Shown: positions 27,821 through 56,060 of the stretch, piece after piece
Position numbering within the stretch: the stretch's first letter is position 1
Layout of the letters: each line of letters starts with the position of its first letter
Source: Escherichia coli
GTDB taxonomy: Bacteria > Pseudomonadota > Gammaproteobacteria > Enterobacterales > Enterobacteriaceae
DNA: 64,000 nt
Direction: 5' to 3' (one strand)
Assembly (NCBI RefSeq): GCF_013122565.1
Contig: NZ_CP053258.1
Made by a program: the position numbers and the translations under genes
The notes under the pieces: model-generated
Told to the model about the DNA's origin: nothing
Database searches by the model: none
What the model saw: the letters and a program-made list of their open reading frames with translations, nothing else

Positions 27821-28093
27821 CTTTTCTTCCTCTGATCTTCAAGCCAAACGACACCGCCATAAATAATAGGCAGCACAGAGGGCGACGTCGAGAGCTGTCC
27901 TGCGCGTTGCCCCGCATTTTTACTTTTTTATGGCTATTTTTTTGCCCTCTGTTTGATCAAAACATTCATTACGCTGATGTGGGGGACACAAAAGCGAAAA
28001 TGCAGAAGAAAGCCATTTGCTAAAATTGAAAGATTACTACTGGGCGCGCAGCAATTTCGTGCGCCCCTCATTTGCGCAATGTAAGGGTGTCAT

Positions 28094-31618: not shown

Positions 31619-31646
31619 ATGCACTGGATAAGGATTATCCAATTCT

Positions 31647-31685
31647 AAAAAAAAGCCCGGACGACTGTTCGGGCTTGTCTTTTTA
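31647..31685. terminator. bidirectional intrinsic terminator shared by pfo and micC
   Basis: A8 - GCCCGGACGACTGTTCGGGC - TTGTCTTTTT: a GC-rich hairpin flanked by an A-run and a T-rich run. Confidence 0.8.
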
Positions 31686-31756
31686 TATGTTAGAAAATCA
31701 GTGGCAATGCAATGGCCCAACAGAAAATAAAATCTGTGACAATAAAGGCATATAAC
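31647..31756 (-). ncRNA. micC: MicC small regulatory RNA (OmpC-repressing)
   Basis: Minus strand begins GTTATATGCCTTTATTGTCACAGATTTTATTTTCTG and ends in a GC hairpin plus U8, matching the MicC sequence as I recall it; lies between pfo and ompN. Confidence 0.8.
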
Positions 31757-31983
31757 CCGCGCAGAATAACGTATAGCAAATTAAAAGTATAATTTTTATT
31801 TTGTATGTATTATCTTCGATACATTCACCAGACTTATTATCATTTCAGAAGAATTATTTGATTAAGGTTTTACTTAAGGCGTAACAAATGATATTTATCG
31901 GCTAACTGAACTTCTCCTTTAGGATGTTTTCACTCCCCGAAATGGGGATAAAAGGCAAATAAAATAACTAAAGGATTTATTCA

Positions 31984-33117: not shown

Positions 33118-33125
33118 ATCCTCCT

Positions 33126-33149
33126 GCCCGCTGTTTTGGCGGGCTTTTT
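33126..33149 (+). terminator. intrinsic terminator of ompN
   Basis: Stem GCCCGC / GCGGGC with loop TGTTTTG, followed by T5. Confidence 0.8.
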
Positions 33150-33176
33150 CTGCTTATTCTTCCTCCTTTGATCTAA

Positions 33177-33692
<516 letters not shown>

Positions 33693-33699
33693 CACTAAC

Positions 33700-33724
33700 G
33701 CCCGCACATTGCTGCGGGCTTTTT
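33700..33724 (+). terminator. intrinsic terminator of uspF
   Basis: Stem GCCCGCA / TGCGGGC followed by T5, 8 nt after the uspF stop. Confidence 0.8.
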
Positions 33725-33867
33725 GATTCATTTCGCAAATGTGCTGACATTTTCCCCTCTAATCCGTACCATACACGCCACAGTTTTTATATCAGATTTC
33801 TTATGCTGGGCGTTCCGGCATGACGCATACTCTTCTGATGCCATATAACGAATTGAGTCGCTTTTAA

Positions 33868-34803
33868 ATGTCGCAAAATCAAGAAATTAGCAAGAAAGAA
33901 CAATACAATCTGAACAAATTACAAAAACGCCTGCGTCGTAACGTGGGCGAAGCCATAGCTGACTTCAATATGATTGAAGAAGGCGATCGCATCATGGTTT
34001 GCCTCTCCGGGGGTAAAGACAGCTATACCATGCTGGAGATTCTGCGCAATTTGCAGCAAAGCGCGCCAATCAATTTTTCACTGGTGGCTGTTAACCTCGA
34101 TCAAAAGCAACCGGGCTTCCCGGAACACGTTCTGCCCGAGTATCTTGAAAAGCTGGGCGTTGAGTACAAGATTGTTGAAGAGAACACTTACGGTATCGTG
34201 AAAGAGAAGATTCCAGAGGGCAAAACCACTTGCTCACTGTGTTCTCGGCTACGTCGCGGTATCCTTTATCGCACCGCAACGGAACTGGGGGCGACGAAGA
34301 TCGCGTTGGGCCACCATCGTGACGATATCCTGCAAACGTTGTTCTTAAATATGTTCTACGGCGGCAAGATGAAAGGTATGCCTCCGAAACTGATGAGCGA
34401 TGATGGCAAACATATCGTTATTCGTCCACTGGCCTACTGCCGCGAGAAAGATATTCAGCGATTTGCCGATGCAAAAGCGTTCCCGATTATTCCGTGCAAC
34501 CTGTGCGGTTCACAGCCTAACCTGCAACGACAAGTGATTGCTGACATGTTGCGTGACTGGGATAAACGTTATCCGGGGCGTATCGAGACGATGTTCAGCG
34601 CGATGCAGAATGTGGTGCCGTCGCATCTGTGCGATACCGACCTGTTCGATTTTAAAGGCATTACCCACGGTTCTGAAGTGGTTAACGGCGGTGATCTGGC
34701 GTTTGATCGCGAAGAGATCCCACTACAACCGGCGGGCTGGCAGCCTGAAGAAGATGAAAATCAGTTGGATGAGTTACGGCTGAATGTGGTTGAAGTGAAA
34801 TAA
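33868..34803 (+). CDS. ttcA: tRNA 2-thiocytidine biosynthesis protein TtcA
   Basis: 311-aa ORF with PP-loop SGGKDS and CxxC motifs. Confidence 0.9.
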
Positions 34804-34810
34804 CCAGGAT

Positions 34811-34884
34811 AGCGCCCGATGCGCAAGCGTATCGGGCTACTCTAATGGAGGCCGGATAAGACGCGGCCAGCGTCGCATCCGGCA
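34811..34884. repeat. REP/BIME element between convergent ttcA and dbpA
   Basis: Two imperfect palindromic units (GCGCCCGATGCGCAAGCGTATCGGGC and GGCCGGATAAGACGCGGCCAGCGTCGCATCCGGC), typical enterobacterial REP sequences. Confidence 0.8.
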
Positions 34885-34931
34885 ATCCCGAATAAGATGT
34901 TTACTCTTGCACCCGGCAATTCAACATCTCA

Positions 34932-36305
34932 TTATTTTAATAACCGCACCCGGCACGTTTTTCCTTTAATCTTCCCGCCCTGTAACTGTTTCCATGCTTT
35001 ATGAGCAACAGCCTGACGGACCGCGACATAGACATGCGCCGGATGCACGGCGATTTTGCCAATATCTGCGCCATCAAGCCCGATATCTCCTGTCAGTGCA
35101 CCTAATATATCACCCGGGCGCATTTTGGCTTTTTTCCCGCCATCGATACACAACGTTGCCATTTCTGCTTCCAGCGTCACAATGGAACTATTAGCTGGCG
35201 GCGTTTGCCAGTTAAGTGTTATCTGCAACATGTCAGAAATGATATTGGCCCGCTGTGCTTCTTCCGGAGCACAGAAACTGATCGCCAGACCGCTATTTCC
35301 TGCACGAGCTGTACGACCGATGCGATGTACATGAACTTCAGGGTCCCACGCCAGCTCAAAGTTCACCACCAGCTCAAGCGATTTAATATCCAGACCACGC
35401 GCAGCAACATCAGTCGCGACCAGTACACGGGCGCTACCGTTAGCAAAACGTACCAGGGTCTGATCGCGATCGCGTTGCTCCAGATCGCCATGTAACGACA
35501 ATGCGCTTTGCCCTACTTCATTCAGCGCGTCACACACAGCCTGGCAATCTTTTTTGGTGTTACAAAACACCACACAAGACGATGGCTGATGCAAACTTAA
35601 TAACCGTTGCAACAGAGGAATTTTGCCCTTGCTGGAGGTCTCATAAAATTGTTGTTCAATAGGCGGCAGTGCATCTGTTGTGTCTATTTCAATCGCCAAA
35701 GCATCGCGTTGCACTCGTCCGCTGATTGCAGCGATGGCTTCCGGCCAGGTTGCCGAAAACAGAAGCGTCTGTCGAGATGCTGGCGCAAAACGGATGACAT
35801 CATCAATGGCATCGCTAAATCCCATATCCAGCATGCGGTCGGCCTCATCCATCACCAAAGTATTCAGCGCATCCAGTGATACCGTGCCTTTTTGCAAGTG
35901 ATCCAGCAAACGACCCGGCGTTGCCACGATAATATGCGGCGCATGTTGCAACGAATCACGCTGCATACCGAACGGTTGACCACCGCACAACGTCAAAATT
36001 TTGGTATTTGGCAGAAAACGCGCCAGCCGACGCAATTCACCTGCCACCTGATCCGCCAGTTCACGCGTAGGACACAGCACTAAAGCCTGGGTTTGAAATA
36101 GCGACGCATCAATTTGCTGTAACAAGCCGAGGCCAAAAGCCGCCGTTTTGCCGCTGCCGGTTTTCGCCTGCACGCGAACATCTTTTCCGGCAAGGATCGC
36201 CGGAAGCGCGGCGGCCTGCACCGGCGTCATAGTTAAATAACCCAACTCATTAAGGTTCGTGAGTTGGGCGGGAGGCAAAACATTCAGGGTAGAAAAAGCG
36301 GTCAC
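34932..36305 (-). CDS. dbpA: ATP-dependent RNA helicase DbpA (DEAD-box)
   Basis: 457-aa ORF with Walker A AKTGSGKT and DEAD motif (VMDEADRMLD); starts with GTG at 36305. Confidence 0.95.
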   Translation of the reverse strand: MTAFSTLNVLPPAQLTNLNELGYLTMTPVQAAALPAILAGKDVRVQAKTGSGKTAAFGLGLLQQIDASLFQTQALVLCPTRELADQVAGELRRLARFLPNTKILTLCGGQPFGMQRDSLQHAPHIIVATPGRLLDHLQKGTVSLDALNTLVMDEADRMLDMGFSDAIDDVIRFAPASRQTLLFSATWPEAIAAISGRVQRDALAIEIDTTDALPPIEQQFYETSSKGKIPLLQRLLSLHQPSSCVVFCNTKKDCQAVCDALNEVGQSALSLHGDLEQRDRDQTLVRFANGSARVLVATDVAARGLDIKSLELVVNFELAWDPEVHVHRIGRTARAGNSGLAISFCAPEEAQRANIISDMLQITLNWQTPPANSSIVTLEAEMATLCIDGGKKAKMRPGDILGALTGDIGLDGADIGKIAVHPAHVYVAVRQAVAHKAWKQLQGGKIKGKTCRVRLLK

Positions 36306-36334
36306 AATCTATTCTCGTGGTCATCGACGCAAAG

Positions 36335-36508
36335 TTAGCAGGCGCGTATCCTCGCAGATCTACGCTCACGATGCGACAATTTAATCGGTTCTTCATCGGG
36401 TGGTGGGTCAGGCATGGGTTGCGGGCGAGGGATCGGATCGGGCACTGGAACAGGATCGCCAGGAATCGGTTCAGGGACAGGAATTTGCAAATAAATAAGT
36501 GTCGTCAT
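36335..36508 (-). CDS. candidate 57-aa proline-rich small ORF upstream of dbpA
   Basis: ATG at 36508 preceded by GGAGGG with a 4-nt spacer; translation MTTLIYLQIPVPEPIPGDPVPVPDPIPRPQPMPDPPPDEEPIKLSHRERRSARIRAC; stop 29 nt before the dbpA GTG. Below the 60-aa cutoff of the supplied ORF track. Confidence 0.35.
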   Translation of the reverse strand: MTTLIYLQIPVPEPIPGDPVPVPDPIPRPQPMPDPPPDEEPIKLSHRERRSARIRAC

Positions 36509-36565
36509 ATTTCCCTCCGGTCATTGGGTGGACTCTTAAAGGGTAGACGCTGATAAATAACAGGC

Positions 36566-36687
36566 AAAAAAAAGCCGACTCATCAAAGTCGGCGTCGTAC
36601 GAATCAATTGTGCTATGCAGTAATTCAAAAAAGGAAGTAAGACAATATGGAGCGCAACGCCCATCGCTTGACGTTGCATTCACCTGC
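36566..36687 (-). ncRNA. fnrS: FnrS small regulatory RNA (FNR-activated)
   Basis: Minus strand reads GCAGGTGAATGCAACGTCAAGCGATGGGCG ... GCCGACTTTGATGAGTCGGC + T8, about 122 nt, matching FnrS as I recall it; lies between zntB and dbpA with an FNR box at about -42. Confidence 0.85.
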
Positions 36688-36722
36688 AAGGGAGATATTG
36701 CCCTGAATGGGTAGAGAGTTTA

Positions 36723-36736
36723 TTGACTTCGCTCAA
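36723..36736 (-). promoter_or_regulatory. FNR-binding site upstream of fnrS
   Basis: TTGAC-N4-CTCAA (consensus TTGAT-N4-ATCAA) centred about 42 bp upstream of the inferred FnrS 5' end. Confidence 0.7.
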
Positions 36737-36782
36737 ACTTTGCGGCGTTTTTGTATACAGACAGCCGGAAAAATTGCTTTTG

Positions 36783-37787
<1,005 letters not shown>

Positions 37788-38020
37788 TTATTTTGTAGTC
37801 TAGCCTTCTGGCCCTGTTACGCAACATCTCATCACCCCATTACCCTGAAATGATTAATAAAATTCTGTCTAAATTGAATACAAAAAGCAAAATGCTTTTC
37901 CGTATACAAACCGTGTGAAGTGTTAAATAGCGTCTATCATTATCAGAATTATCTGATCATATGACGTGGCTTTTTTGCGATCGGATAACAACAAAAATTG
38001 ATAAAAATAACGGGATCTCA

Positions 38021-39253
38021 ATGATTACGCACAACTTCAATACCCTGGACTTACTCACCAGTCCTGTCTGGATCGTTTCGCCCTTTGAGGAACAGTTAAT
38101 TTATGCCAATAGCGCGGCGCGACTGTTGATGCAAGACCTCACGTTTAGTCAGCTACGAACCGGACCCTATTCCGTCTCCTCACAAAAAGAACTGCCGAAA
38201 TACCTCTCCGATCTGCAAAACCAACACGATATTATCGAAATCCTCACCGTTCAGCGTAAAGAAGAGGAAACAGCATTAAGCTGTCGGCTTGTTTTGCGAA
38301 AGCTGACAGAAGCAGAACCGGTAATTATTTTCGAAGGTATCGAAGCGCCGGCAACGCTGGGTTTAAAAGCCAGCCGCTCGGCAAATTATCAGCGCAAAAA
38401 ACAAGGTTTTTATGCGCGTTTTTTTCTGACTAACTCTGCACCAATGTTGTTGATTGACCCCTCACGAGATGGCCAAATCGTCGATGCTAACCTCGCCGCG
38501 CTCAATTTCTATGGTTATAACCATGAAACGATGTGCCAGAAACATACCTGGGAAATTAATATGCTCGGGCGTCGCGTCATGCCTATCATGCATGAAATTT
38601 CGCATTTACCCGGTGGTCATAAACCTTTGAATTTTGTTCATAAACTGGCGGATGGTTCTACTCGTCATGTGCAGACCTATGCCGGGCCGATTGAAATTTA
38701 TGGCGACAAGCTCATGTTATGTATTGTGCATGATATTACTGAGCAAAAACGGCTGGAGGAGCAGCTGGAACATGCTGCTCACCATGACGCGATGACCGGA
38801 TTACTGAATCGGCGACAGTTTTATCACATTACCGAGCCAGGCCAAATGCAGCACCTCGCCATCGCTCAGGATTACAGCTTGTTGCTCATCGACACCGATC
38901 GTTTTAAACACATTAACGATCTCTATGGGCATTCTAAAGGTGATGAGGTGTTATGCGCCCTCGCCCGCACCCTCGAAAGTTGCGCTCGTAAAGGCGATTT
39001 GGTGTTTCGTTGGGGAGGCGAAGAGTTTGTCTTATTGCTACCAAGGACCCCACTGGATACCGCGCTTTCGCTGGCTGAAACTATCCGTGTAAGCGTGGCA
39101 AAAGTGAGTATTTCGGGCTTACCACGCTTTACCGTCAGCATTGGTGTGGCGCATCACGAAGGAAATGAAAGCATCGATGAACTGTTTAAACGCGTTGATG
39201 ATGCTTTGTATCGGGCGAAAAATGATGGACGCAACCGCGTGCTGGCGGCATAA
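38021..39253 (+). CDS. dgcM: diguanylate cyclase with PAS and GGDEF domains
   Basis: Longest ORF starts at 37961; ATG at 38021 (MITHNFNTL...) gives 410 aa; GGEEF active-site motif present. Confidence 0.85.
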   Translation: MITHNFNTLDLLTSPVWIVSPFEEQLIYANSAARLLMQDLTFSQLRTGPYSVSSQKELPKYLSDLQNQHDIIEILTVQRKEEETALSCRLVLRKLTEAEPVIIFEGIEAPATLGLKASRSANYQRKKQGFYARFFLTNSAPMLLIDPSRDGQIVDANLAALNFYGYNHETMCQKHTWEINMLGRRVMPIMHEISHLPGGHKPLNFVHKLADGSTRHVQTYAGPIEIYGDKLMLCIVHDITEQKRLEEQLEHAAHHDAMTGLLNRRQFYHITEPGQMQHLAIAQDYSLLLIDTDRFKHINDLYGHSKGDEVLCALARTLESCARKGDLVFRWGGEEFVLLLPRTPLDTALSLAETIRVSVAKVSISGLPRFTVSIGVAHHEGNESIDELFKRVDDALYRAKNDGRNRVLAA

Positions 39254-39273
39254 GCCGCGGATGCGTCTCGAGA

Positions 39274-39837
39274 TCAACGGCTGCGCTTAGCGTGGCGCTC
39301 CCAGTTTTCTTGCTTCGCCTGCGCCGTTTTACGTAGTGCGACGTAACACGCCCCGCTGCCGCCATGATGCGGTAGCGCGGTGCAATATGCCTGAACATCA
39401 TCAAATTCGGTCAGCCAGCGCGCCACATAGCTGCGGACAATATTGGCATGTGATTTATCATCCCGCCCTTTACCATGAATAATCAGCACGTTACGCAAAC
39501 CATCCGCCAGGGCTTGTTGAATGAAACTGAACACCATTTTGCGGCACTCTTCCACCGGCTGGCGCAAAAGATTCAGGCTCGCCTGTTGCGGATATTTACC
39601 ACTACGCAGCTTATCCAGCACCCCATGTTGCAACCCTTCCCGCCGAAACTCCAGCGGCTGACTTAGCGGGATAATGTCGAGAAATCCGGTAGTGAGGAAA
39701 TTATCAAGCTGCAGCGTGTCGATACGCTGTGGCGCACGTTGGTTACGCGTGGGATGCCAGTGGACATCGGTAGCACGTTTCAGCGGCTGGACATCTTCCA
39801 TGGCGTCAAGAAACAGCGATTTGTCGTCAAGGTTCAT
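39274..39837 (-). CDS. smrA: Smr-domain DNA endonuclease
   Basis: 187-aa ORF with Smr-domain sequence; position matches K-12 ydaL/smrA. Confidence 0.8.
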   Translation of the reverse strand: MNLDDKSLFLDAMEDVQPLKRATDVHWHPTRNQRAPQRIDTLQLDNFLTTGFLDIIPLSQPLEFRREGLQHGVLDKLRSGKYPQQASLNLLRQPVEECRKMVFSFIQQALADGLRNVLIIHGKGRDDKSHANIVRSYVARWLTEFDDVQAYCTALPHHGGSGACYVALRKTAQAKQENWERHAKRSR

Positions 39838-40064
39838 GTTACATCCTCCCGCAATTAAGAGCGCGATATGATAACCAGACCGGGTCGGTCCAACAACGTA
39901 TTACCCAAATTTCCAGTAATAAGTTCCAAATATTGCCGATATTTTAAGCAAAATGCTTATGCATGATTATTCATTCATGATATTAATAATGTAACTTATA
40001 TTTTCGTGAAATCTGTCACTGAAGAAAATTGGCAACTAAAGGTTAAAACCGTTATAACACAGTC

Positions 40065-40158
40065 ACCGGCGCAGAGGAGACAATGCCGGATTTAAGACGC
40101 GGATGCACTGCTGTGTGTACTGTAGAGTCTGGCGGATGTCGACAGACTCTATTTTTTT
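40065..40158 (+). ncRNA. mcaS: McaS small regulatory RNA
   Basis: Plus strand ACCGGCGCAGAGGAGACAATGCCGGATTTAAGACGCGGATGCACTGCTGTGTGTACTGTAGAGTCTGGCGGATGTCGACAGACTCT + T7 matches McaS (IsrA) as I recall it; terminator ends 8 nt from the abgR stop. Confidence 0.75.
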
Positions 40159-40166
40159 ATGCAGTT

Positions 40167-41075
40167 TTAACTTTGCAGATAGCCGCATTCTCGCCGGAAT
40201 TGCGTGATTAATGACGCGGTCAGTGGTGTCTGGCGACTATCACGCCGCTGAATCAAATAATAGGCCGCTTTCGGTAAAATTTCGCTAACCGGCAACATCA
40301 CCAGCCCCTGTCCGTGCAAGGGATCGCAGCCCATTTCTTCAGGCAGTATGCTGAGAAAATCGCTTTTTGCCACCAGACTGATACAGGCTGAGAACGTCTC
40401 GCAGACTACACCGACCTGTGGCATTTGCGCCTGATCGTCAAGCAATTCACTCAACTGTTTGTAGTAGCTGCCGTGTGGCGTCGGCATTGTCCAGCTGTAA
40501 TCCAGTAACTGTTTGATCGAACGGGCACCAATGGCGGGATGTCCCGGGCGGCAAAAGATCGCGAATTGCTTTTCCAGTAATTTCTCAAAAGTAAATTCGT
40601 GGTCGTACGGTCCCTGATAATAGGTATTGATGGTGAAATCCAATTCTCCCTGACGCAATTCATTAATCATCGACACCAGTTGCCCTTCCATAATGCGTAC
40701 TTTTACCTGCGGATGCTGCTGATGAAAACGAGATATGACAGCTGGCATCAGACTGCGGGAAATACTGGCCCCCATGCCGATATTAATCTGCCCTGCCAGT
40801 TGCCCTTGTCGTTGGCGAATATCCTCGTGGGCTGCGCGCAGCTCTTCAAGAATAAGACTGGCGTGCTGATAAAAACTTTCACCGGCATCAGTTAACGTCA
40901 CGCCTTTACTACGGCGAAAAAAGAGTTGCGCCGCCAACCCTTCTTCCAGCTCCTGAATAGATTTACTCAGTGCCGGTTGCGACATATTCAACATTCGGCT
41001 CGCTCCGCGAATGCTGCCCTGACGAGCCACTTCAACAAAAGCCCGAATTTGATGAATTTTTACCTGTAAAGCCAT
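40167..41075 (-). CDS. abgR: LysR-family transcriptional regulator of the abg operon
   Basis: 302-aa ORF with N-terminal LysR HTH; divergent from abgA. Confidence 0.9.
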   Translation of the reverse strand: MALQVKIHQIRAFVEVARQGSIRGASRMLNMSQPALSKSIQELEEGLAAQLFFRRSKGVTLTDAGESFYQHASLILEELRAAHEDIRQRQGQLAGQINIGMGASISRSLMPAVISRFHQQHPQVKVRIMEGQLVSMINELRQGELDFTINTYYQGPYDHEFTFEKLLEKQFAIFCRPGHPAIGARSIKQLLDYSWTMPTPHGSYYKQLSELLDDQAQMPQVGVVCETFSACISLVAKSDFLSILPEEMGCDPLHGQGLVMLPVSEILPKAAYYLIQRRDSRQTPLTASLITQFRRECGYLQS

Positions 41076-41250
41076 GACGCCACCGATAACCGTTATTTAT
41101 CAGACCAAAGAAACTGGCATCTACTTTAATGCAGATGATTGTGTCAGGGTAATTTATGAACGGTTAAAACTGTGAAAAATCAGTTAGTGATAAGTAAAAA
41201 CTATCGCTACGTGAACCGGGTCACACTTTTTACTGATGACGGGAAAGGTT

Positions 41251-42561
41251 ATGGAGTCTTTGAATCAATTTGTTAATTCGCTTGCCCCAACATTATCGCA
41301 CTGGCGACGTGATTTTCATCACTATGCAGAGTCTGGCTGGGTGGAATTCCGCACTGCCACCCTTGTTGCGGAAGAATTGCACCAGCTCGGCTATTCACTG
41401 GCGCTGGGTCGCGAAGTAGTTAATGAAAGTAGCCGGATGGGATTACCTGATGAATTCACTCTACAACGCGAATTCGAACGCGCTCGTCAACAGGGTGCGC
41501 TAGCACAATGGATTGCGGCGTTTGAAGGTGGTTTCACTGGTATCGTCGCCACCCTGGATACCGGTCGCCCCGGTCCGGTGATGGCTTTCCGTGTCGATAT
41601 GGACGCGCTGGATCTCAGTGAAGAGCAGGATGTCAGCCATCGCCCCTACCGCGACGGTTTTGCGTCATGTAACGCCGGAATGATGCATGCCTGTGGTCAT
41701 GATGGACATACCGCCATTGGGCTTGGGCTGGCGCATACCCTTAAACAGTTCGAGTCCGGACTACATGGCGTCATCAAACTGATTTTTCAGCCTGCAGAGG
41801 AAGGTACGCGTGGCGCGCGGGCGATGGTCGATGCAGGTGTCGTAGATGATGTTGATTATTTTACTGCCGTGCACATTGGCACTGGCGTACCTGCGGGCAC
41901 CGTGGTGTGCGGCAGTGATAATTTTATGGCAACCACCAAATTTGACGCGCACTTCACCGGGACCGCCGCTCACGCAGGCGCAAAACCAGAAGACGGTCAC
42001 AATGCCTTGTTGGCGGCAGCACAAGCAACTCTTGCACTACATGCAATCGCCCCGCACAGCGAAGGAGCTTCCAGAGTAAACGTGGGCGTTATGCAGGCAG
42101 GAAGCGGTCGTAATGTTGTTCCTGCCTCGGCGTTGCTGAAAGTGGAAACACGCGGGGCCAGCGACGTCATTAATCAATATGTTTTTGACCGTGCACAACA
42201 AGCGATTCAGGGCGCAGCAACCATGTATGGTGTCGGCGTTGAAACTCGTCTGATGGGTGCAGCTACCGCCAGTTCTCCTTCGCCGCAATGGGTCGCATGG
42301 TTGCAAAGTCAGGCGGCTCAGGTCGCGGGGGTCAATCAGGCCATTGAACGTGTTGAAGCGCCTGCGGGTTCCGAAGATGCCACATTAATGATGGCCCGCG
42401 TGCAGCAACATCAAGGGCAAGCCTCCTACGTGGTGTTTGGCACGCAACTGGCGGCAGGTCATCACAACGAAAAATTCGATTTTGACGAGCAGGTTCTCGC
42501 TATTGCCGTCGAAACGCTGGCGCGCACCGCGCTCAATTTTCCCTGGACGCGAGGTATCTGA
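41251..42561 (+). CDS. abgA: p-aminobenzoyl-glutamate hydrolase subunit A (M20 peptidase)
   Basis: ATG at 41251 preceded by GGGAAAGG; 436 aa; M20 peptidase sequence. Confidence 0.9.
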   Translation: MESLNQFVNSLAPTLSHWRRDFHHYAESGWVEFRTATLVAEELHQLGYSLALGREVVNESSRMGLPDEFTLQREFERARQQGALAQWIAAFEGGFTGIVATLDTGRPGPVMAFRVDMDALDLSEEQDVSHRPYRDGFASCNAGMMHACGHDGHTAIGLGLAHTLKQFESGLHGVIKLIFQPAEEGTRGARAMVDAGVVDDVDYFTAVHIGTGVPAGTVVCGSDNFMATTKFDAHFTGTAAHAGAKPEDGHNALLAAAQATLALHAIAPHSEGASRVNVGVMQAGSGRNVVPASALLKVETRGASDVINQYVFDRAQQAIQGAATMYGVGVETRLMGAATASSPSPQWVAWLQSQAAQVAGVNQAIERVEAPAGSEDATLMMARVQQHQGQASYVVFGTQLAAGHHNEKFDFDEQVLAIAVETLARTALNFPWTRGI

Positions 42562-44006
42562 TGCAGGAAATCTATCGTTTTATCGACGATGCGATTGAAG
42601 CCGATCGCCAACGTTATACCGATATTGCCGATCAAATCTGGGATCATCCAGAAACACGTTTTGAAGAGTTCTGGTCAGCGGAGCATCTGGCTTCGGCGCT
42701 GGAATCTGCAGGCTTCACCGTTACCCGCAACGTAGGCAATATCCCAAATGCCTTTATTGCTTCGTTTGGTCAAGGCAAACCGGTTATCGCCCTGCTGGGG
42801 GAATATGACGCCCTGGCAGGTTTAAGTCAGCGAGCAGGTTGCGCGCAACCTACATCCGTGACGCCCGGTGAAAATGGTCACGGTTGCGGACACAATTTGC
42901 TGGGAACCGCCGCCTTTGCCGCTGCAATAGCCGTCAAGAAATGGCTGGAACAATATGGGCAAGGCGGCACAGTGCGCTTTTATGGTTGTCCTGGCGAAGA
43001 AGGCGGCTCGGGTAAAACGTTCATGGTCCGCGAGGGGGTATTTGATGATGTGGATGCGGCACTCACCTGGCACCCGGAAGCCTTTGCCGGTATGTTCAAT
43101 ACCCGCACGCTGGCAAACATTCAGGCATCATGGCGCTTTAAAGGGATCGCAGCACATGCCGCAAATTCCCCTCATTTGGGACGCAGCGCCCTTGATGCCG
43201 TAACGTTGATGACCACTGGCACCAACTTCCTCAACGAACATATTATTGAAAAAGCGCGCGTACACTATGCCATCACAAATAGCGGCGGGATCTCGCCCAA
43301 CGTGGTCCAGGCGCAGGCAGAAGTGCTTTATCTTATCCGCGCCCCCGAAATGACCGACGTGCAGCATATTTATGATCGGGTCGCCAAAATCGCCGAAGGT
43401 GCGGCATTGATGACCGAAACCAAGGTTGAATGCCGCTTCGACAAAGCCTGTTCCAGTTATCTCCCGAATCGCACCTTAGAAAATGCCATGTACAGAGCCC
43501 TATCCCATTTTGGTACCCCGGAATGGAACTCCGAAGAACTGGCTTTTGCGAAACAAATTCAGGCTACGCTCACCCCCAACGATCGGCAAAACAGTCTGAA
43601 TAATATCGCCGCAACCGGTGGCGAAAACGGCAAGGCTTTTGCACTACGTCATCGTGAAACGGTACTGGCGAATGAAGTCGCGCCATATGCCGCCACCGAT
43701 AACGTGCTTGCGGCATCGACTGATGTCGGCGACGTCAGTTGGAAACTTCCAGTTGCCCAGTGTTTCAGCCCCTGTTTTGCCGTCGGTACACCACTACATA
43801 CGTGGCAACTGGTTAGCCAGGGGCGAACATCTATTGCTCATAAAGGAATGCTGCTGGCGGCGAAAACTATGGCAGCAACCACAGTCAATCTCTTCATTGA
43901 TTCAGGGCTATTGCAACAATGCCAACAAGAGCATCAGCAAGTAACGGACACGCAACCGTATCACTGCCCTATCCCGAAAAACGTGACACCGTCACCTTTA
44001 AAATAA
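42561..44006 (+). CDS. abgB: p-aminobenzoyl-glutamate hydrolase subunit B (M20 peptidase)
   Basis: 481-aa ORF; start overlaps the abgA stop (ATGA-type coupling). Confidence 0.9.
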   Translation: MQEIYRFIDDAIEADRQRYTDIADQIWDHPETRFEEFWSAEHLASALESAGFTVTRNVGNIPNAFIASFGQGKPVIALLGEYDALAGLSQRAGCAQPTSVTPGENGHGCGHNLLGTAAFAAAIAVKKWLEQYGQGGTVRFYGCPGEEGGSGKTFMVREGVFDDVDAALTWHPEAFAGMFNTRTLANIQASWRFKGIAAHAANSPHLGRSALDAVTLMTTGTNFLNEHIIEKARVHYAITNSGGISPNVVQAQAEVLYLIRAPEMTDVQHIYDRVAKIAEGAALMTETKVECRFDKACSSYLPNRTLENAMYRALSHFGTPEWNSEELAFAKQIQATLTPNDRQNSLNNIAATGGENGKAFALRHRETVLANEVAPYAATDNVLAASTDVGDVSWKLPVAQCFSPCFAVGTPLHTWQLVSQGRTSIAHKGMLLAAKTMAATTVNLFIDSGLLQQCQQEHQQVTDTQPYHCPIPKNVTPSPLK

Positions 44007-44042
44007 CAACAACAACGCAAACACAACAACCGAGGAATGCCC

Positions 44043-45569
44043 ATGAGTATGTCATCCATACCGTCATCCTCCCAATCCGGGAAGCTCTATGGCTGGGTCG
44101 AAAGAATTGGTAACAAGGTTCCCCATCCTTTTTTGCTCTTTATCTATTTGATTATCGTACTCATGGTGACGACGGCAATTTTGTCGGCCTTTGGCGTCAG
44201 TGCGAAAAACCCGACCGATGGTACGCCAGTGGTGGTGAAAAACCTGCTCAGTGTGGAAGGATTACACTGGTTTTTACCCAATGTTATTAAAAACTTTAGC
44301 GGTTTTGCTCCACTTGGTGCGATCCTGGCGCTGGTTTTAGGTGCCGGTCTGGCGGAGCGCGTCGGCTTACTGCCAGCGCTAATGGTTAAAATGGCATCGC
44401 ATGTTAATGCCCGCTACGCCAGTTATATGGTGCTGTTTATTGCTTTTTTCAGCCACATTTCTTCCGATGCGGCGTTAGTGATCATGCCACCGATGGGTGC
44501 GCTGATTTTTCTGGCGGTGGGCAGGCATCCAGTTGCAGGTTTACTGGCTGCCATTGCAGGCGTAGGTTGCGGCTTTACGGCTAATTTACTGATTGTCACA
44601 ACCGACGTGTTGCTGTCGGGGATCAGCACGGAAGCGGCAGCTGCGTTCAATCCGCAAATGCACGTCAGTGTAATTGATAACTGGTATTTTATGGCCAGCT
44701 CCGTAGTCGTACTGACGATTGTTGGCGGCCTGATAACCGACAAAATCATCGAGCCACGGTTAGGTCAATGGCAGGGAAACAGCGATGAGAAACTGCAGAC
44801 ATTGACCGAAAGTCAGCGTTTTGGTTTACGCATAGCAGGTGTCGTATCGCTACTTTTTATTGCTGCGATCGCGCTGATGGTGATCCCGGAAAACGGGATA
44901 TTGCGCGATCCGATTAATCACACCGTGATGCCATCACCCTTTATTAAAGGTATCGTGCCACTGATCATTCTTTTTTTCTTTGTGGTCTCGCTGGCTTATG
45001 GCATCGCTACCCGCACAATTCGACGTCAGGCGGATTTACCGCATTTAATGATTGAACCGATGAAAGAGATGGCGGGATTTATCGTGATGGTTTTTCCCCT
45101 CGCCCAGTTTGTCGCCATGTTTAACTGGAGCAACATGGGGAAATTCATCGCCGTGGGGCTGACCGATATACTGGAAAGTTCAGGGCTTAGCGGCATCCCG
45201 GCGTTTGTCGGTCTGGCGTTGCTTTCCTCTTTCTTATGCATGTTTATCGCCAGCGGTTCCGCAATCTGGTCGATTCTGGCCCCCATTTTCGTACCAATGT
45301 TTATGCTACTTGGCTTTCACCCGGCATTTGCGCAAATCCTCTTTCGTATTGCCGACTCATCCGTATTGCCTTTAGCGCCAGTATCTCCTTTTGTTCCACT
45401 GTTTCTTGGATTCCTGCAACGCTACAAACCAGACGCGAAACTGGGTACTTACTATTCGTTAGTCTTGCCCTATCCGCTTATCTTTTTGGTGGTATGGCTG
45501 CTGATGTTGCTGGCGTGGTATCTTGTGGGCCTGCCGATAGGTCCGGGGATTTACCCACGTTTGTCTTAA
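44043..45569 (+). CDS. abgT: p-aminobenzoyl-glutamate transporter (AbgT family)
   Basis: Polytopic membrane protein; ATG at 44043 has a GAGGA Shine-Dalgarno 6 nt upstream and gives 508 aa. Confidence 0.9.
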
Positions 45570-45579
45570 GAGAGAACGG

Positions 45580-46095
45580 ATGCTGAGATTACTTGAAGAA
45601 AAAATTGCCACGCCACTGGGTCCACTGTGGGTGATTTGCGATGAGCAATTTCGCCTGCGGGCGGTTGAATGGGAAGAGTACAGCGAACGCATGGTGCAGC
45701 TGCTGGACATCCATTATCGCAAAGAAGGCTATGAGCGCATTTCTGCCACCAATCCAGGCGGTTTAAGCGACAAGCTTCGTGAATATTTTGCCGGTAATCT
45801 TAGCATTATTGATACGCTTCCCACTGCTACGGGGGGGACGCCATTTCAGCGCGAAGTCTGGAAAACACTACGCACTATCCCCTGCGGGCAGGTAATGCAT
45901 TACGGCGAACTGGCTGAGCAATTGGGCCGTCCTGGCGCGGCGCGTGCCGTTGGTGCGGCAAACGGATCGAATCCCATCAGCATCGTCGTACCTTGCCATC
46001 GGGTTATTGGCCGAAACGGCACCATGACCGGATATGCAGGCGGAGTTCAGCGAAAAGAGTGGTTATTGCGCCATGAAGGTTATCTTTTGCTGTAA
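45580..46095 (+). CDS. ogt: methylated-DNA--protein-cysteine methyltransferase
   Basis: 171-aa ORF with active-site PCHRV motif. Confidence 0.9.
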
Positions 46096-46256
46096 ACATT
46101 AAACAATTTGTGCCAGCTTGTTCACACTTTTATGTAAAGTTACCCTTAACAACTTAAGGGTTTTCAAATAGATAGACATATATTTACATCTAATATCGGA
46201 ATTCTCTGCTGTTAAGGTTTGCTTAGACTTACTTGCTCCCTAAAAAGATGTTAAAA

Positions 46257-46270
46257 TTGACAAATATCAA
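46257..46270 (+). promoter_or_regulatory. FNR-binding site in the fnr promoter (autoregulation)
   Basis: TTGAC-AAAT-ATCAA, a near-consensus FNR box 20 nt upstream of the fnr ATG. Confidence 0.7.
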
Positions 46271-46289
46271 TTACGGCTTGAGCAGACCT

Positions 46290-47042
46290 ATGATCCCGGA
46301 AAAGCGAATTATACGGCGCATTCAGTCTGGCGGTTGTGCTATCCATTGCCAGGATTGCAGCATCAGCCAGCTTTGCATCCCGTTCACACTCAACGAACAT
46401 GAGCTTGATCAGCTTGATAATATCATTGAGCGGAAGAAGCCTATTCAGAAAGGCCAGACGCTGTTTAAGGCTGGTGATGAACTTAAATCGCTTTATGCCA
46501 TCCGCTCCGGTACGATTAAAAGTTATACCATCACTGAGCAAGGCGACGAGCAAATCACTGGTTTCCATTTAGCAGGCGACCTGGTGGGATTTGACGCCAT
46601 CGGCAGCGGCCATCACCCGAGCTTCGCGCAGGCGCTGGAAACCTCGATGGTATGTGAAATCCCGTTCGAAACGCTGGACGATTTGTCCGGTAAAATGCCG
46701 AATCTGCGTCAGCAGATGATGCGTCTGATGAGCGGTGAAATCAAAGGCGATCAGGACATGATCCTGCTGTTGTCGAAGAAAAATGCCGAGGAACGTCTGG
46801 CTGCATTCATCTACAACTTGTCCCGTCGTTTTGCCCAACGCGGCTTCTCCCCTCGTGAATTCCGCCTGACGATGACTCGTGGCGATATCGGTAACTATCT
46901 GGGCCTGACGGTAGAAACCATCAGCCGTCTGCTGGGTCGCTTCCAGAAAAGCGGTATGCTGGCAGTCAAAGGTAAATACATCACCATCGAAAATAACGAT
47001 GCGCTGGCCCAGCTTGCTGGTCATACGCGTAACGTTGCCTGA
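46290..47042 (+). CDS. fnr: fumarate/nitrate reduction transcriptional regulator FNR
   Basis: Longest ORF starts at TTG 46233; ATG at 46290 ([24 protein letters not shown]...) gives the 250-aa FNR with its N-terminal Cys cluster and C-terminal HTH. Confidence 0.95.
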
Positions 47043-47193
47043 TTTTTCCGCATAACTCACTATCCTTCTGTCATATCATTAAATTTTTCTGATTTATTGA
47101 TCTGGCAGAAGGTTCATCACTGTTTCATTCACCAGATATGGGTTAATCTTTTAATTACAAACTGCGTTGACAGTTGTTGTAAGGAGACCCTGT

Positions 47194-48144
47194 ATGGCTA
47201 TGTATCAGAACATGCTCGTTGTTATCGATCCTAACCAGGACGACCAACCAGCATTGCGGCGAGCTGTTTATTTACATCAACGGATTGGTGGCAAAATTAA
47301 AGCCTTTTTGCCGATCTATGACTTCTCATACGAAATGACCACCCTGCTCTCCCCGGACGAACGTACCGCTATGCGTCAGGGCGTCATCAGCCAGCGTACA
47401 GCCTGGATCCACGAGCAGGCAAAATATTATCTCAATGCTGGCGTTCCCATTGAAATTAAAGTGGTCTGGCATAACCGTCCTTTCGAAGCCATCATTCAGG
47501 AAGTGATCAGCGGCGGGCACGATTTGGTGCTAAAAATGGCGCACCAACATGACCGTCTGGAAGCGGTGATTTTTACGCCAACGGACTGGCATCTGTTACG
47601 CAAATGCCCAAGCCCGGTATGGATGGTGAAAGACCAGCCGTGGCCGGAAGGGGGTAAGGCGCTGGTGGCGGTGAATCTCGCCAGTGAAGAGCCGTATCAT
47701 AATGCGCTCAATGAAAAACTGGTCAAAGAGACGATCGAACTGGCAGAACAAGTCAACCATACCGAAGTTCATCTGGTTGGCGCTTACCCAGTAACGCCAA
47801 TTAATATCGCGATTGAACTGCCGGAATTTGATCCGAGCGTTTATAACGATGCCATTCGTGGGCAACATTTGCTGGCAATGAAAGCTCTGCGGCAGAAATT
47901 CGGCATTAATGAAAACATGACGCACGTAGAAAAAGGTCTGCCAGAAGAGGTGATTCCTGATTTGGCGGAGCACTTACAGGCGGGGATTGTGGTTCTGGGC
48001 ACGGTCGGACGCACCGGTATTTCAGCAGCATTCCTCGGCAACACGGCGGAACAGGTGATTGATCATCTTCGCTGCGATCTGTTGGTCATTAAACCTGACC
48101 AGTATCAGACACCCGTTGAACTGGATGACGAAGAAGACGATTAA
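47194..48144 (+). CDS. uspE: universal stress protein E (tandem Usp domains)
   Basis: ATG at 47194 preceded by AAGGAGA; 316 aa. Confidence 0.9.
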
Positions 48145-48165
48145 CGACTCTTCAATAACTGACAA

Positions 48166-48192
48166 GGCCCGAGTTATCGGGCCTATTTTTTA
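48166..48192 (+). terminator. intrinsic terminator of uspE
   Basis: Stem GGCCCGA / TCGGGCC with loop GTTA, followed by TATTTTTTA. Confidence 0.8.
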
Positions 48193-48193
48193 C

Positions 48194-48451
48194 TTACTGC
48201 TCTTCGCCGCCAAGGAAATAAATTCCCAACGGGATTGCCAGCAACACAGTAAAGACCAGGCTATAAACAAAAATCATCGATGACTGAATCACATACATTG
48301 ATGTCGTCCACTCAGACAGCGGAATATTGTACTGTTCTATAACGCCGCCGATAGTCGCGCGAGTCACAACCGACGCCGCAATAATGAAAACCGCCAACAA
48401 ACCAAAGAGAAATTTCTTCCCTTTCGCTGACTTCAGTTTCGCCATAATCAT
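48194..48451 (-). CDS. ynaJ: small inner-membrane protein YnaJ
   Basis: 85-aa ORF with two predicted transmembrane helices. Confidence 0.75.
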   Translation of the reverse strand: MIMAKLKSAKGKKFLFGLLAVFIIAASVVTRATIGGVIEQYNIPLSEWTTSMYVIQSSMIFVYSLVFTVLLAIPLGIYFLGGEEQ

Positions 48452-48694
48452 GATGTAATCCTTGTGCAGACAAATTTCTTGTTACCTAAACGTAACAATA
48501 CCATGACATTTCACCGTTGTCTGCTCTGAAAAGCTCACCTCTTAGCTGGATTTACAATCAACGCATTGATTAGTTAGCTAATGTTGCTACTTCCTTCCCT
48601 GACTATTGATGATCTGAATGAATTGTCGCGGTAAAATAGCCCCGCCAGGGGTTTCCGGCATGACGACAATTATCTGGAGGAGCCTGATAAAACA

Positions 48695-49726
48695 ATGATC
48701 GCTGAACTGTTTACAAATAATGCGCTTAATCTGGTCATTATTTTCGGTAGCTGCGCAGCATTGATTCTGATGAGCTTTTGGTTTCGCCGCGGAAATCGTA
48801 AAAGAAAAGGCTTTTTATTCCATGCGGTGCAATTTTTAATCTACACCATAATTATCAGTGCTGTTGGTAGCATTATTAATTATGTTATAGAAAACTATAA
48901 ACTCAAATTTATCACCCCAGGCGTTATCGATTTTATCTGTACGTCCCTGATTGCGGTTATTCTGACGATTAAGCTATTTTTGCTGATTAATCAGTTTGAA
49001 AAACAGCAGATTAAAAAAGGTCGCGATATCACCAGTGCGCGGATTATGTCGCGCATTATCAAAATCACCATTATTGTGGTGCTTGTTCTGCTTTATGGCG
49101 AACATTTCGGCATGAGCCTTTCTGGCTTGTTGACCTTTGGTGGTATTGGTGGTCTGGCTGTCGGTATGGCCGGTAAAGATATTTTGAGTAACTTCTTTTC
49201 CGGGATCATGCTCTATTTCGACCGTCCTTTTAGTATTGGCGACTGGATCCGTTCACCGGACAGAAATATCGAAGGTACAGTAGCGGAAATTGGCTGGCGA
49301 ATTACCAAGATTACGACTTTTGATAATCGTCCATTGTACGTACCGAACTCGCTGTTTTCGTCGATCAGCGTAGAAAACCCAGGACGAATGACCAACCGGC
49401 GCATTACCACGACCATTGGTTTACGTTATGAGGATGCGGCAAAAGTGGGCGTTATTGTCGAAGCCGTACGTGAGATGCTGAAAAATCACCCGGCCATTGA
49501 CCAGCGACAAACCTTACTGGTTTATTTCAACCAGTTTGCTGACTCCTCATTGAATATTATGGTTTATTGCTTTACCAAAACCACGGTATGGGCTGAATGG
49601 CTTGCTGCACAGCAAGACGTTTATTTGAAGATTATCGATATTGTACAGTCACACGGCGCGGACTTTGCCTTCCCCAGCCAGACGCTGTATATGGATAACA
49701 TTACACCGCCGGACCAGGGTCGCTAA
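48695..49726 (+). CDS. ynaI: MscS-family mechanosensitive channel
   Basis: 343-aa ORF with N-terminal transmembrane helices and an MscS-like beta domain. Confidence 0.85.
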
Positions 49727-49736
49727 ATCAGACATC

Positions 49737-49766
49737 ACTGGCGTTATCCACAAGGGTAACGCCAGT
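49737..49766. terminator. 10-bp-stem hairpin between convergent ynaI and mppA
   Basis: ACTGGCGTTA pairs with TAACGCCAGT, loop of 10 nt; likely a bidirectional terminator. Confidence 0.55.
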
Positions 49767-49776
49767 TCCCATCACA

Positions 49777-51390
49777 TCAATGCTTCACAATATACATAGT
49801 CCGACTGTACGCCACATCTTCCGGGTTATTAATGGGATAACCTTTCAGCCACGGCTTGATTAATCGTCCATTGGTATATTGATAAATTGGTGCAATCGGT
49901 GCTTGCTCCATGAGGATTTTTTCTGCCGCATTGTAATCGGCATTACGCGCTTTAACGGTATTTTCCGTTGATGCCTGGGCCAGTACTTTGTCGTATGCCG
50001 GATTGTTAAAGCGTGAAATATTTCCTGAATGCGTTGACGTTAATAATGTCAGGAAAGTGGAGGGTTCATTATAATCCCCTACCCACGAGGCTCGGATAAC
50101 ATCAAAATTGCCGGTGTTACGGCTATCGATATAGGTTTTCCATTCCTGATTTTGCAATTTAACATCTACGCCAAGGTTCTTTTTCCACATCGATGCTACA
50201 GCAATCGCAATTTTTTGATGGTTTTCTGAAGTGTTATACAAAAGCGTCAGCTTCAGCGGTTTTTGCGGACCATAACCAGCTGCGCTCAACAAAGTTTTTG
50301 CCTGCGCATTCAGTTCTTCCTGACTCATTTGTTCAAACGGCGAAGGCTCCGGCGTAAAACCGGCAGTAACATCTGGTGTAAAATGCCACGCTGGCTTTTC
50401 ACCCGTCCCCAACACTTTTTCGGTCATCAGGCGGCGATCTATCGTCATACTTAATGCCAGACGAACGCGCTGATCTGCCGTCGGCCCTTTTTGCGTGTTA
50501 AACGCATAATAATAGGTCCCGAGCTGCGGCGGCGTATAAACCTGCCCCGGAATATCCTTCAACAGCTTCTGATACATATTTTTCGGGAAGGATTCGGTGA
50601 TATCAATATCCCCCGCGAGATAACGCTTAGTGGCTGCGGATTCCTGATTAATTGGCAGGAAGGTCACTTTTTGCAGCACCGTTTTGGCGTTATCCCAATA
50701 ATGGGTATTCGGTACCACGACCAGTTTTTCATTGACTACGCGCTCTTTAAGAACATAAGCGCCATTACCGATCAGATTTCCGGGTTTCGTCCACTCTTTA
50801 CTGCTTTCTACGTTGGCTTTTTGCACCGGGAAGAAGGCAAAGTTAGCGGTTAAATTCACAAACCACGGCAACGGTTTATCAAGCTGGATTTTCAAAGTAT
50901 GGGCATCAACTGCGGTGACGCCAAGCTGGTCAGGCGCGGCTTTACCATCAATAATCGCCTGTGCGTTGTTGATTCCCGCCAGCGCGGCAAACCATGCAAA
51001 TGGCGACAATGTTTTTGGGTCCACCAGACGTTGCCAGCTGTAGACAAAATCTTGCGCCGTTACCGGTGTGCCATCCGCCCATTTTGCGTTATCGCGCAGG
51101 GTAAAAGTCCAGATACGGTTGTCATTACTTTTCCACTGAGTCGCAACGCCGGGGACAATCTCCCCTTTCTCGTTCTGATTCACCAGTCCTTCAAACAGAT
51201 CGCGAATGACCTGAATCTCTGGCAGGCCCACGGCTTTAGCGGGATCCAGCGACGCAGGCTCATCTTTAATGTGGCGCACCAGCTCCTGCTTCTCTGCCAG
51301 TACTGTGCCGCTCGGAACTTCTGCAGCATACGAAAGAGAAATGCTGCTGACCAACAGCGCACAACACGTGACTGAAACAGAGTGCTTCAT
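49777..51390 (-). CDS. mppA: periplasmic murein tripeptide-binding protein
   Basis: Longest ORF is 544 aa; ATG at 51390 (MKHSVSVT...) preceded by AGAGGGA gives 537 aa; signal peptide; OppA-like solute-binding protein. Confidence 0.9.
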   Translation of the reverse strand: MKHSVSVTCCALLVSSISLSYAAEVPSGTVLAEKQELVRHIKDEPASLDPAKAVGLPEIQVIRDLFEGLVNQNEKGEIVPGVATQWKSNDNRIWTFTLRDNAKWADGTPVTAQDFVYSWQRLVDPKTLSPFAWFAALAGINNAQAIIDGKAAPDQLGVTAVDAHTLKIQLDKPLPWFVNLTANFAFFPVQKANVESSKEWTKPGNLIGNGAYVLKERVVNEKLVVVPNTHYWDNAKTVLQKVTFLPINQESAATKRYLAGDIDITESFPKNMYQKLLKDIPGQVYTPPQLGTYYYAFNTQKGPTADQRVRLALSMTIDRRLMTEKVLGTGEKPAWHFTPDVTAGFTPEPSPFEQMSQEELNAQAKTLLSAAGYGPQKPLKLTLLYNTSENHQKIAIAVASMWKKNLGVDVKLQNQEWKTYIDSRNTGNFDVIRASWVGDYNEPSTFLTLLTSTHSGNISRFNNPAYDKVLAQASTENTVKARNADYNAAEKILMEQAPIAPIYQYTNGRLIKPWLKGYPINNPEDVAYSRTMYIVKH

Positions 51391-51572
51391 AAGTTTCCCT
51401 CTAACCGACATTAAAATTGATGCGTAATTATTTGTTTCGCCTTAAAGAAATGCAAACAACTTCCATCAAAAAAGTGATACAAGATCGATAACATAGCGTT
51501 GAAGAAAAGGATTTGATAATCCGCAAAATTTGCACAACACTGCCTGTAATACTTCCTGAACCAGAGACGATC

Positions 51573-53910: not shown

Positions 53911-54017
53911 GATCTACCAGTCCCACTATTTTCCAGAGTTCCTGCCACTATTCCCCCTAACCGTTGTGCATTAAGATTGCTCTTTGCCAATATTGGCCCA
54001 GCGGAGTGATGACTATT

Positions 54018-56060
54018 ATGGATGATAAACAAATTACGGTCTGGCTTAAACACAATTGCTGTTCAACGGACATTCCTGCCATTGCCGAGGCACTAACGAA
54101 CCATGCAGAATGGCTTTTAGAGCTAGCGCCAGATCCTATTGAACAAGGTAGTTCATGTTTACCGCCGACAGCTGCAGCCGGTATTTTTCTTGGCGCAGCG
54201 GCGATGGTTCACTGCGGCGAGGCTAGTGGTGCAGAAACCTGGCTCGAAGCAGCCATTACTGATTACCATTTCTTTAATCCAAATGGATATAGTTCATGGA
54301 GAGGCAGTACGCCTGTTTTTACAGCATTATCGCGTTACCCGGCATTAAGAATGGTGTTATTTAACGCCGCTTGCGCAATGGAAGACTGGAATAAAGCATC
54401 CGCTGTTCTTGAATCGCTTTTCCATGCCAGCGATGTCCCGGAAGATAACCCTGTCGCCCCAAATTTTACCCCTTATGCGCTGAAAGCGTTTATCGCGGAT
54501 TACCACCCGTTAGGACCAGCTCATTATGATGAAACCTGGTTGCTGGCAAAACAAGCGTGGTTAATTAATGCGAGCGTTCTGGATGAGCGAACCTGCAATA
54601 CCTGGAAGCAATATACCCGCCACTTGCGCCATTTGATCCACAATGCACAGTTTGCCGATGCGCTCTCTTTTGTACGCAGTAAAAAAGAACCGTTAAATCA
54701 TATCCATACCTACTCAGACTTTTATCTGTATGCGATTGGTTTATTTTCTTATACTGGTCAGCTAAATGAAGCGCTGACCTGGATAAAACAGTTAATCCAC
54801 AACAATGATGGTCATTTCTGTGATCTTTTCGTTTCAACTGGCAAAGAGCGCCGAATAAAGCCTGAACTTAGTACCTTGCTGAATAATCTCTTGCACAGCG
54901 CAGAGTTTCAGGCGTTGCAGGATAAATATCTCACCGTCGGACATGATGTTGTGCATTCTGGTCCCTTCATGTCAGTTTATGAAAAGGTTCTTGGCGGAAA
55001 GTCCCGAAAGCGCTGCGCGATTAGTCGAAAATTAATCTCGCCCGGCGAAGCGGTTTATGAATATCGTCAGCTGGATAGTGTGGCATATATTGCAGCGAAA
55101 GCGGCCTTTCAGGCATCTGCGCTAAATAATATCGCCCTCCGGCATACAAATGATAGTTATCAGTGGCAGGATTTTGCCGCCCAATGGCCTCGTCGGGGTG
55201 CGCTTTCTCACCCGGATATTGCCCGTTATATGTTTGAGCGCCAGAAAGGGAAATGTTTTGATGCCGCAGAGTTTATTCAACTGATTGCCGAACCGTTTGT
55301 CTTTCCGATGCGTTTCAGATGGGTTGCCGGGTTGTCCTTTGAATTACATCAGTACCCGGATGCCTATTTCGTAAATGACAATATGGCGGGTGAATTTGTT
55401 AATCTCTGCTGGATGGCTATAAAATGCGGACATGCTGGCGACATTTTTAAACAACTGGCGAAGGAGTCGCATGACGTTGCCGACCCTATTTACGCTATGC
55501 TCGCCACGTTTGACCGCGCTGATTGCCGCAGCGCTGCCGCCGCGCACTTTGGACGACCGGAGCTTGCGGAAATAATGGCGCTGGCTTTCAGTTCGAGGTT
55601 ATCGCTCGACAGCGTCCTTACCATCGCTGAGTTTGGTAAAAATCAGCCGCGCTTTTCACATGCGTTGGCAACGGCCCTCCTGCGTTACAACCTGCACATC
55701 TACTCAAACTATATGCCGCAGGTTAACTGGTTCCTTCAGGGGCTGGAACACTATGCTTTGGCAAAAGGCGGTCAACTTTTAAATTTCTTTGTGCATATTC
55801 CAGAACAAATTCCCGTTCTGGCGACCATGCTGGAACATGGCGTATTAGTGCGTGGGATCGGTGAAGGTGCCTATGATGGTTATGATAATTCAGCAAATTC
55901 ATTTCATCATGCCGCCGTGATGCACTGCCTCACGCACGCGCCGGAAAAAGTTCGCTACTGGATGGAAACACCCTGGATTCAGAACTATTTAGTGAATGCG
56001 CCGCTGCGTCAAACGGCGCGCCATGTGGAAGCCTGGCATAAAAAGTTTGGCATCAAATGA
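54018..56060 (+). CDS. uncharacterized ~680-aa protein with no recognisable motif, encoded on an insertion between tpx and tyrR
   Basis: Uninterrupted ORF (longest form from TTG 53964, 698 codons); ATG at 54018 sits about 7 nt after a GGAGTGAT Shine-Dalgarno-like sequence (alternative ATG at 54009). No Walker A, HTH, signal peptide or nuclease motif seen; rare codons CGA and ATA are used; bounded by the tpx terminator and an inverted repeat at the tyrR 3' end. Confidence 0.7.
   Translation: MDDKQITVWLKHNCCSTDIPAIAEALTNHAEWLLELAPDPIEQGSSCLPPTAAAGIFLGAAAMVHCGEASGAETWLEAAITDYHFFNPNGYSSWRGSTPVFTALSRYPALRMVLFNAACAMEDWNKASAVLESLFHASDVPEDNPVAPNFTPYALKAFIADYHPLGPAHYDETWLLAKQAWLINASVLDERTCNTWKQYTRHLRHLIHNAQFADALSFVRSKKEPLNHIHTYSDFYLYAIGLFSYTGQLNEALTWIKQLIHNNDGHFCDLFVSTGKERRIKPELSTLLNNLLHSAEFQALQDKYLTVGHDVVHSGPFMSVYEKVLGGKSRKRCAISRKLISPGEAVYEYRQLDSVAYIAAKAAFQASALNNIALRHTNDSYQWQDFAAQWPRRGALSHPDIARYMFERQKGKCFDAAEFIQLIAEPFVFPMRFRWVAGLSFELHQYPDAYFVNDNMAGEFVNLCWMAIKCGHAGDIFKQLAKESHDVADPIYAMLATFDRADCRSAAAAHFGRPELAEIMALAFSSRLSLDSVLTIAEFGKNQPRFSHALATALLRYNLHIYSNYMPQVNWFLQGLEHYALAKGGQLLNFFVHIPEQIPVLATMLEHGVLVRGIGEGAYDGYDNSANSFHHAAVMHCLTHAPEKVRYWMETPWIQNYLVNAPLRQTARHVEAWHKKFGIK

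Follow-up and report, generated by a model that had tools for sequence, protein, structure and literature searches.

An unoccupied K-12 IS5F insertion site in the ynaJ/ynaI intergenic region of an Escherichia coli genome

Introduction

In Escherichia coli K-12 MG1655 (NC_000913.3), the feature 'insertion sequence:IS5F' is annotated at 1396044..1397238 (1195 bp, insH4/b1331) between ynaI (b1330) and ynaJ (b1332), where the IS5 element is upstream of both genes, 121 bp from the start of ynaI and 126 bp from that of ynaJ. The target tetranucleotide that IS5 duplicates is YTAR, which CTAA fits. The position of IS5F is already known, both from the MG1655 annotation and from a study in which the ynaI/ynaJ copy was one of 11 IS5 copies in BW25113, with CTAA/CTAG-type flanking sites (PMC11677980). 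Additionally, b1331 recombines with a second IS5, resulting in a ynaJ-uspE-fnr deletion in a W3110 stock (PMC2072959). The ynaI mRNA is readily detected in K-12 strain Frag1 (PMC3508906), and the K-12 IS5 insertion therefore does not silence ynaI.

This study compared the K-12 locus with its counterpart in a 64-kb stretch of E. coli DNA (hereafter the window, meaning the whole stretch that was analysed), and placed both alleles within a population of 5,426 complete RefSeq E. coli genomes, from which all population counts below were drawn.

Results and Discussion

The ynaJ/ynaI locus in the window

From the open reading frame (ORF) listing and the RefSeq annotation under the matches, the region around the spacer is the E. 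coli segment abgT-ogt-fnr-uspE-ynaJ/ynaI-mppA-mpaA (Table 1). The original prediction described ynaJ and ynaI as divergent genes with a clean 243-bp intergenic region, and its coordinates were confirmed, with no IS sequence found between the two genes. According to the ORF listing, no ORF of at least 40 aa lies wholly within 48452..48694, and no ORF for an InsH (DDE) transposase is present between ynaJ and ynaI. An Rfam scan of the window returned FnrS, MicC and McaS only, leaving the spacer empty, and no promoter-like site in the spacer passed a simple sigma-70 consensus scan. The spacer presumably serves ynaJ and ynaI as a common upstream regulatory region, with the promoter positions likewise putative. 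Within the ynaI 5' leader, the consensus scan also gave a terminator-like hairpin with a T-run behind it, antisense to ynaI.

Table 1. Positions of the features discussed, in window coordinates.
Feature	Position	Strand	Description
ynaJ	48194..48451	−	85 aa, DUF2534 small membrane protein; Pfam E 4.5e-41; length equal to K-12 b1332
ynaI	48695..49726	+	343 aa, MscS-family low-conductance mechanosensitive channel; Pfam MS_channel 1st/2nd/3rd domains; RefSeq annotation
ynaJ/ynaI divergent spacer	48452..48694		exactly 243 bp, uninterrupted, 42% G+C
TTAGTTAGCTAA cluster	48570..48581		three abutting YTAR sites, of five in the whole spacer
Unoccupied IS5 target	48574..48577		TTAG on +, CTAA on −; K-12 has these 4 bp on both sides of IS5F
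IS5 in K-12	48574-48577		target duplication, CTAA on −
ISSfl7-like IS5-family element in FDAARGOS_943	48571-48573		915-bp element; TAG duplication
IS1A in NCTC9966	48576-48584		9-bp duplication
Terminator-like hairpin and T-run	48643..48660	−	consensus scan only
ydbA ORF	16238..22273	−	2011 aa, intact; region 16238..22677
698-aa ORF	53964..56060	+	in extra segment 53857..56100

Comparison of the occupied and empty alleles

An alignment with K-12 had been proposed as the check on the IS5 (insH) copy, and K-12 does carry an IS at this position: the blastn blocks between the window and K-12 end at IS5F. One block joins window 33875..48577 to K-12 1411941..1397239 and the next joins window 48574..51477 to K-12 1396043..1393140, so that both stop exactly at the IS5F ends and have 4 bp of the window (48574..48577) in common. 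The two K-12 junctions read ...TTAGCTAA followed by GGAAGGTGCGAACAAG, and ...CGCACCTTCC followed by CTAACTAATC. In full, K-12 has ...ATTAGCTAA|GGAAGGTGCGAACAAG...IS5...CGCACCTTCC|CTAACTAATC..., whereas the window equivalent is ...ATTAGCTAACTAATC..., with a single CTAA in place of the CTAA-IS5-CTAA arrangement of K-12. When IS5F and one CTAA are removed from K-12 in silico, a 243-bp spacer results that differs from the window at 1 of 243 bases (position 48533).

An IS5 copy was defined as an element of ~1.2 kb with 16-bp terminal inverted repeats, an InsH (DDE) transposase gene and a 4-bp YTAR duplication, and none of these was found in the window spacer. A search of the window for the terminal inverted repeat (16 bp, GGAAGGTGCGAA(C/T)AAG; up to 3 mismatches) gave two matches with 3 mismatches each, both elsewhere in the window and at chance level, and the spacer lacks a YTAR target-site duplication, its one CTAA at the target being the unduplicated copy. 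The window flanks are instead collinear with both K-12 flanks and join at exactly one target copy. The two sequences have the locus, the flanks and the target CTAA in common; K-12 additionally has IS5F (1195 bp) and a second CTAA, both absent from the window. Since the alignment breakpoints fall at the IS5F ends, one CTAA is present, and the rebuilt K-12 spacer is one base off, the allele in the window is the unoccupied form of the site into which IS5F inserted in K-12. The finding is one of presence or absence, to which a chance statistic does not apply.

Frequency of the empty and occupied alleles in E. coli

The spacer is uninterrupted in 5055 of the 5422 matching genomes (93%; a single match spanning 80% or more of a 303-bp query). 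The K-12-type junction on the ynaI side (160-bp query, consisting of 80 bp of flank and 80 bp of IS5) had full-length matches in 355 genomes; 60 of these carriers were listed, and each is a K-12 laboratory strain (MG1655, C600, DH5alpha, DH1, J53, NCM3722 and others). The ynaJ-side junction was fully matched in 346 genomes, again all K-12 laboratory strains among the matches listed. The gap of nine genomes between the two junctions fits an IS5-mediated loss of ynaJ-uspE-fnr, as documented for the W3110 stock, and also fits one W3110 assembly in which the query matched over its ynaI half only. In the median genome, each of the two junction queries matches at one place; because this match is to the flank by itself, no IS5 end is seen in the median complete E. 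coli genome.

Outside of K-12, the locus of most E. coli shows no material difference from that of the window. O157:H7 Sakai (NC_002695.2), for example, has an uninterrupted spacer with a 64-bp core that is 100% identical to the window, and across most E. coli the rows sampled show 99.0-99.7% identity over the 303-bp query, with the order uspE-ynaJ/ynaI-mppA as in the window. With a strict E-value, the 64-bp core query matched 5010 genomes and was 100% identical in most, a census that is confounded by small indels and SNPs near 48595-48605 which drop matches, so that the count falls below the 5055 genomes with a whole spacer. This query was intended to show whether every interruption lies at the target, and it gives no hotspot statistic. 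An exact 24-mer across the empty site had 0 matches in the species-representative genomes, among which the E. coli representative is possibly K-12 itself.

The agreement with finished genomes also bears on the quality of the source assembly, from which an IS copy could in principle have been collapsed out. No support for such a collapse was found; in short-read assemblies, repeats cause contigs to break and do not leave two flanks joined seamlessly at a single copy of the target, and the window spacer agrees base for base with thousands of finished genomes through the core just described. An assembly artefact is accordingly regarded as extremely improbable.

The timing of the K-12 insertion is addressed by strain E2 (NZ_CP195953.1, wastewater, Panama), which has an empty site at 4875..4878 of the E2 locus sequence. 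In the 9.6 kb around the site, E2 differs from MG1655 by 4 mismatches (99.94-99.98% identity) and has the same gene content, and its genome size and coordinates are K-12-like. Strain E2 is closely related to K-12, of natural origin, and predates the IS5F insertion. Since this near-K-12 strain has the empty site, the IS5F insertion is recent and lies on the K-12 branch. The counts and strain E2 combined show an empty allele that is widespread and an occupied allele that, among the carriers listed, is confined to one recent clade.

Probable ancestral state of the spacer

The window spacer is very probably the native, never-occupied allele, with the K-12 lineage having recently gained IS5F/insH4 there. 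The polarity, in which the empty allele would be ancestral, is supported by the logic of the target duplication and by the distribution within E. coli. Of the two readings offered in the original prediction, the ancestral state at ynaJ/ynaI is therefore upheld by the single CTAA, the population frequency and strain E2; the second reading, an IS-poor lineage, is not, and is taken up with the IS content below.

The single CTAA is also exactly the sequence that precise excision would yield, had the window lineage once held IS5 at this site and then lost it. However, precise excision of IS5 is generally rare, the near-universal empty allele in E. coli makes an excision unnecessary, and identity between K-12 and the window in this region is only 98.6-98.9% (blastn), so that the window is not a K-12 descendant. 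A past occupation followed by excision thus has next to no probability, and the never-occupied allele is retained as the explanation.

On this explanation, IS5 transposes into YTAR tetranucleotides, which it duplicates. In K-12 the insertion is at the middle CTAA of the TTAGTTAGCTAA cluster. The window strain has kept a single CTAA, and its divergent promoter region, the promoters being putative, is intact. With no IS5 here, the window strain would presumably also lack an IS5-IS5 recombination substrate for the ynaJ-uspE-fnr deletion.

Independent insertions within the target cluster

Roughly 12 interrupted genomes lie outside K-12, and two of these were characterised: FDAARGOS_943 and NCTC9966. 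Together with K-12, they reveal that three different IS (IS5, the ISSfl7-like element and IS1A) landed independently within the 14 bp from 48571 to 48584 (Table 1). The insertions in FDAARGOS_943 and NCTC9966 have this 14-bp stretch in common with the K-12 IS5 target, but they are different elements that arrived in independent events, each found in a single listed genome, and both are absent from the window. The ISSfl7-like junction is unique to FDAARGOS_943, where the junction query found 32 places; one of these is the junction itself, leaving roughly 30 copies of the element end.

The cluster of YTAR sites adequately explains both IS5-family insertions. This stretch of the spacer is about 70% A+T, and IS1 favours AT-rich DNA. 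That the cluster is a true landing hotspot for IS is a tentative suggestion, and rather doubtful at present, as the sample is too small for a statistic. If the hotspot were true, it would matter for how the two genes are understood: the regulation of ynaI and ynaJ is known experimentally from K-12 only, in which the control region is split by IS5, and the wild-type regulation could differ.

IS content of the window

The window is IS-free throughout its 64 kb and aligns to non-IS K-12 DNA as six collinear blocks. Two stretches are unaligned, namely the middle of the ydbA ORF and the 698-aa ORF, which has no transposase domain. No 20-mers are common to the window and IS5F, IS5Y, IS2D, IS30C, IS1A or the ISSfl7-like element. 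The claim that ydbA is free of IS elements was likewise correct: in K-12, IS2D and IS30C interrupt ydbA, and the window has one uninterrupted ORF in its place.

The original prediction took the empty ynaJ/ynaI site and the intact ydbA as possible symptoms of an IS-poor lineage. The lack of any IS in the window agrees with this reading, as does the homologous 110 kb of K-12, which holds four IS (IS5F, IS5Y, IS2D and IS30C). However, the empty site is the norm in E. coli: it is common to 93% of the complete genomes whatever their IS load, including O157:H7, whose genomes are generally IS-rich. The occupied state is K-12-specific among the carriers listed, making K-12 the outlier and not the window. 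K-12 itself contains roughly 40 IS in 4.64 Mb, and zero IS in 64 kb is therefore uninformative, because even the K-12 expectation is below one (~0.6 per 64 kb). An IS-free 64-kb stretch would be the outcome for most E. coli genomes, and the absence of IS5 at the spacer carries no information on the genome-wide IS load. An IS-poor lineage is consequently considered an unlikely account of the window, and the empty site is attributed to the never-occupied allele.

Other differences between the window and K-12

Several further differences from K-12 were noted along the window. The ydbA ORF is intact in the window, and its central 5.3 kb could not be aligned to K-12 (blastn, 11-base words). Between ydbL and ydbA, the K-12 feaRB-tynA-paa cluster (about 1446202..1465100) is wholly missing from the window. 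The Rac prophage (K-12 1411899..1434958) is also absent, and the alignment blocks on either side overlap by 43 bp, at window 33875..33917, at the ttcA 3' end, corresponding to an empty attachment site.

In the window, mppA adjoins mpaA, while K-12 has a 2.4-kb pgrR-ycjY-ymjD-ymjC block between the two genes (1390724..1393139). A 30-bp stretch of the window (51448..51477) aligns to both edges of the K-12 pgrR-ymjC block, and the block is therefore flanked by 30-bp direct repeats in K-12. These repeats point to either an insertion of the block or its deletion by recombination between the repeats.

The 698-aa ORF lies between tpx and tyrR in a segment that is absent from K-12. Only 30 of the 5,426 complete genomes have it, at 97.7% identity and under the annotation 'hypothetical protein', making it a rare orphan gene with no Pfam, NCBIfam or PADLOC match and with a G+C content of 47.7% compared to about 52% in its flanks. 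Exact-protein searches with the 698-aa product and with YdbA of the window gave no recorded match for either.

With respect to the window as a whole, the best identity to a complete RefSeq E. coli genome is 98.9% over 25001..50000 and 96.5%, at 88% coverage, over 1..25000. All 5,426 complete E. coli genomes differ from the window by at least 1.1% over 25 kb. With no near counterpart among the complete RefSeq genomes, the lineage of the window is poorly represented.

Conclusions

The overall importance of the empty site is very little. For E. coli in general, K-12 carries the atypical allele at ynaJ/ynaI, where IS5F was recently acquired on the K-12 branch and also seeds recurrent ynaJ-uspE-fnr deletions in some K-12 stocks. 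Since K-12 is atypical here, missing K-12 IS copies are not evidence on the IS load of another strain. For the window strain, the practical consequences are that the divergent ynaJ/ynaI control region is intact and that IS5 is absent beside fnr, where a copy could seed deletions.
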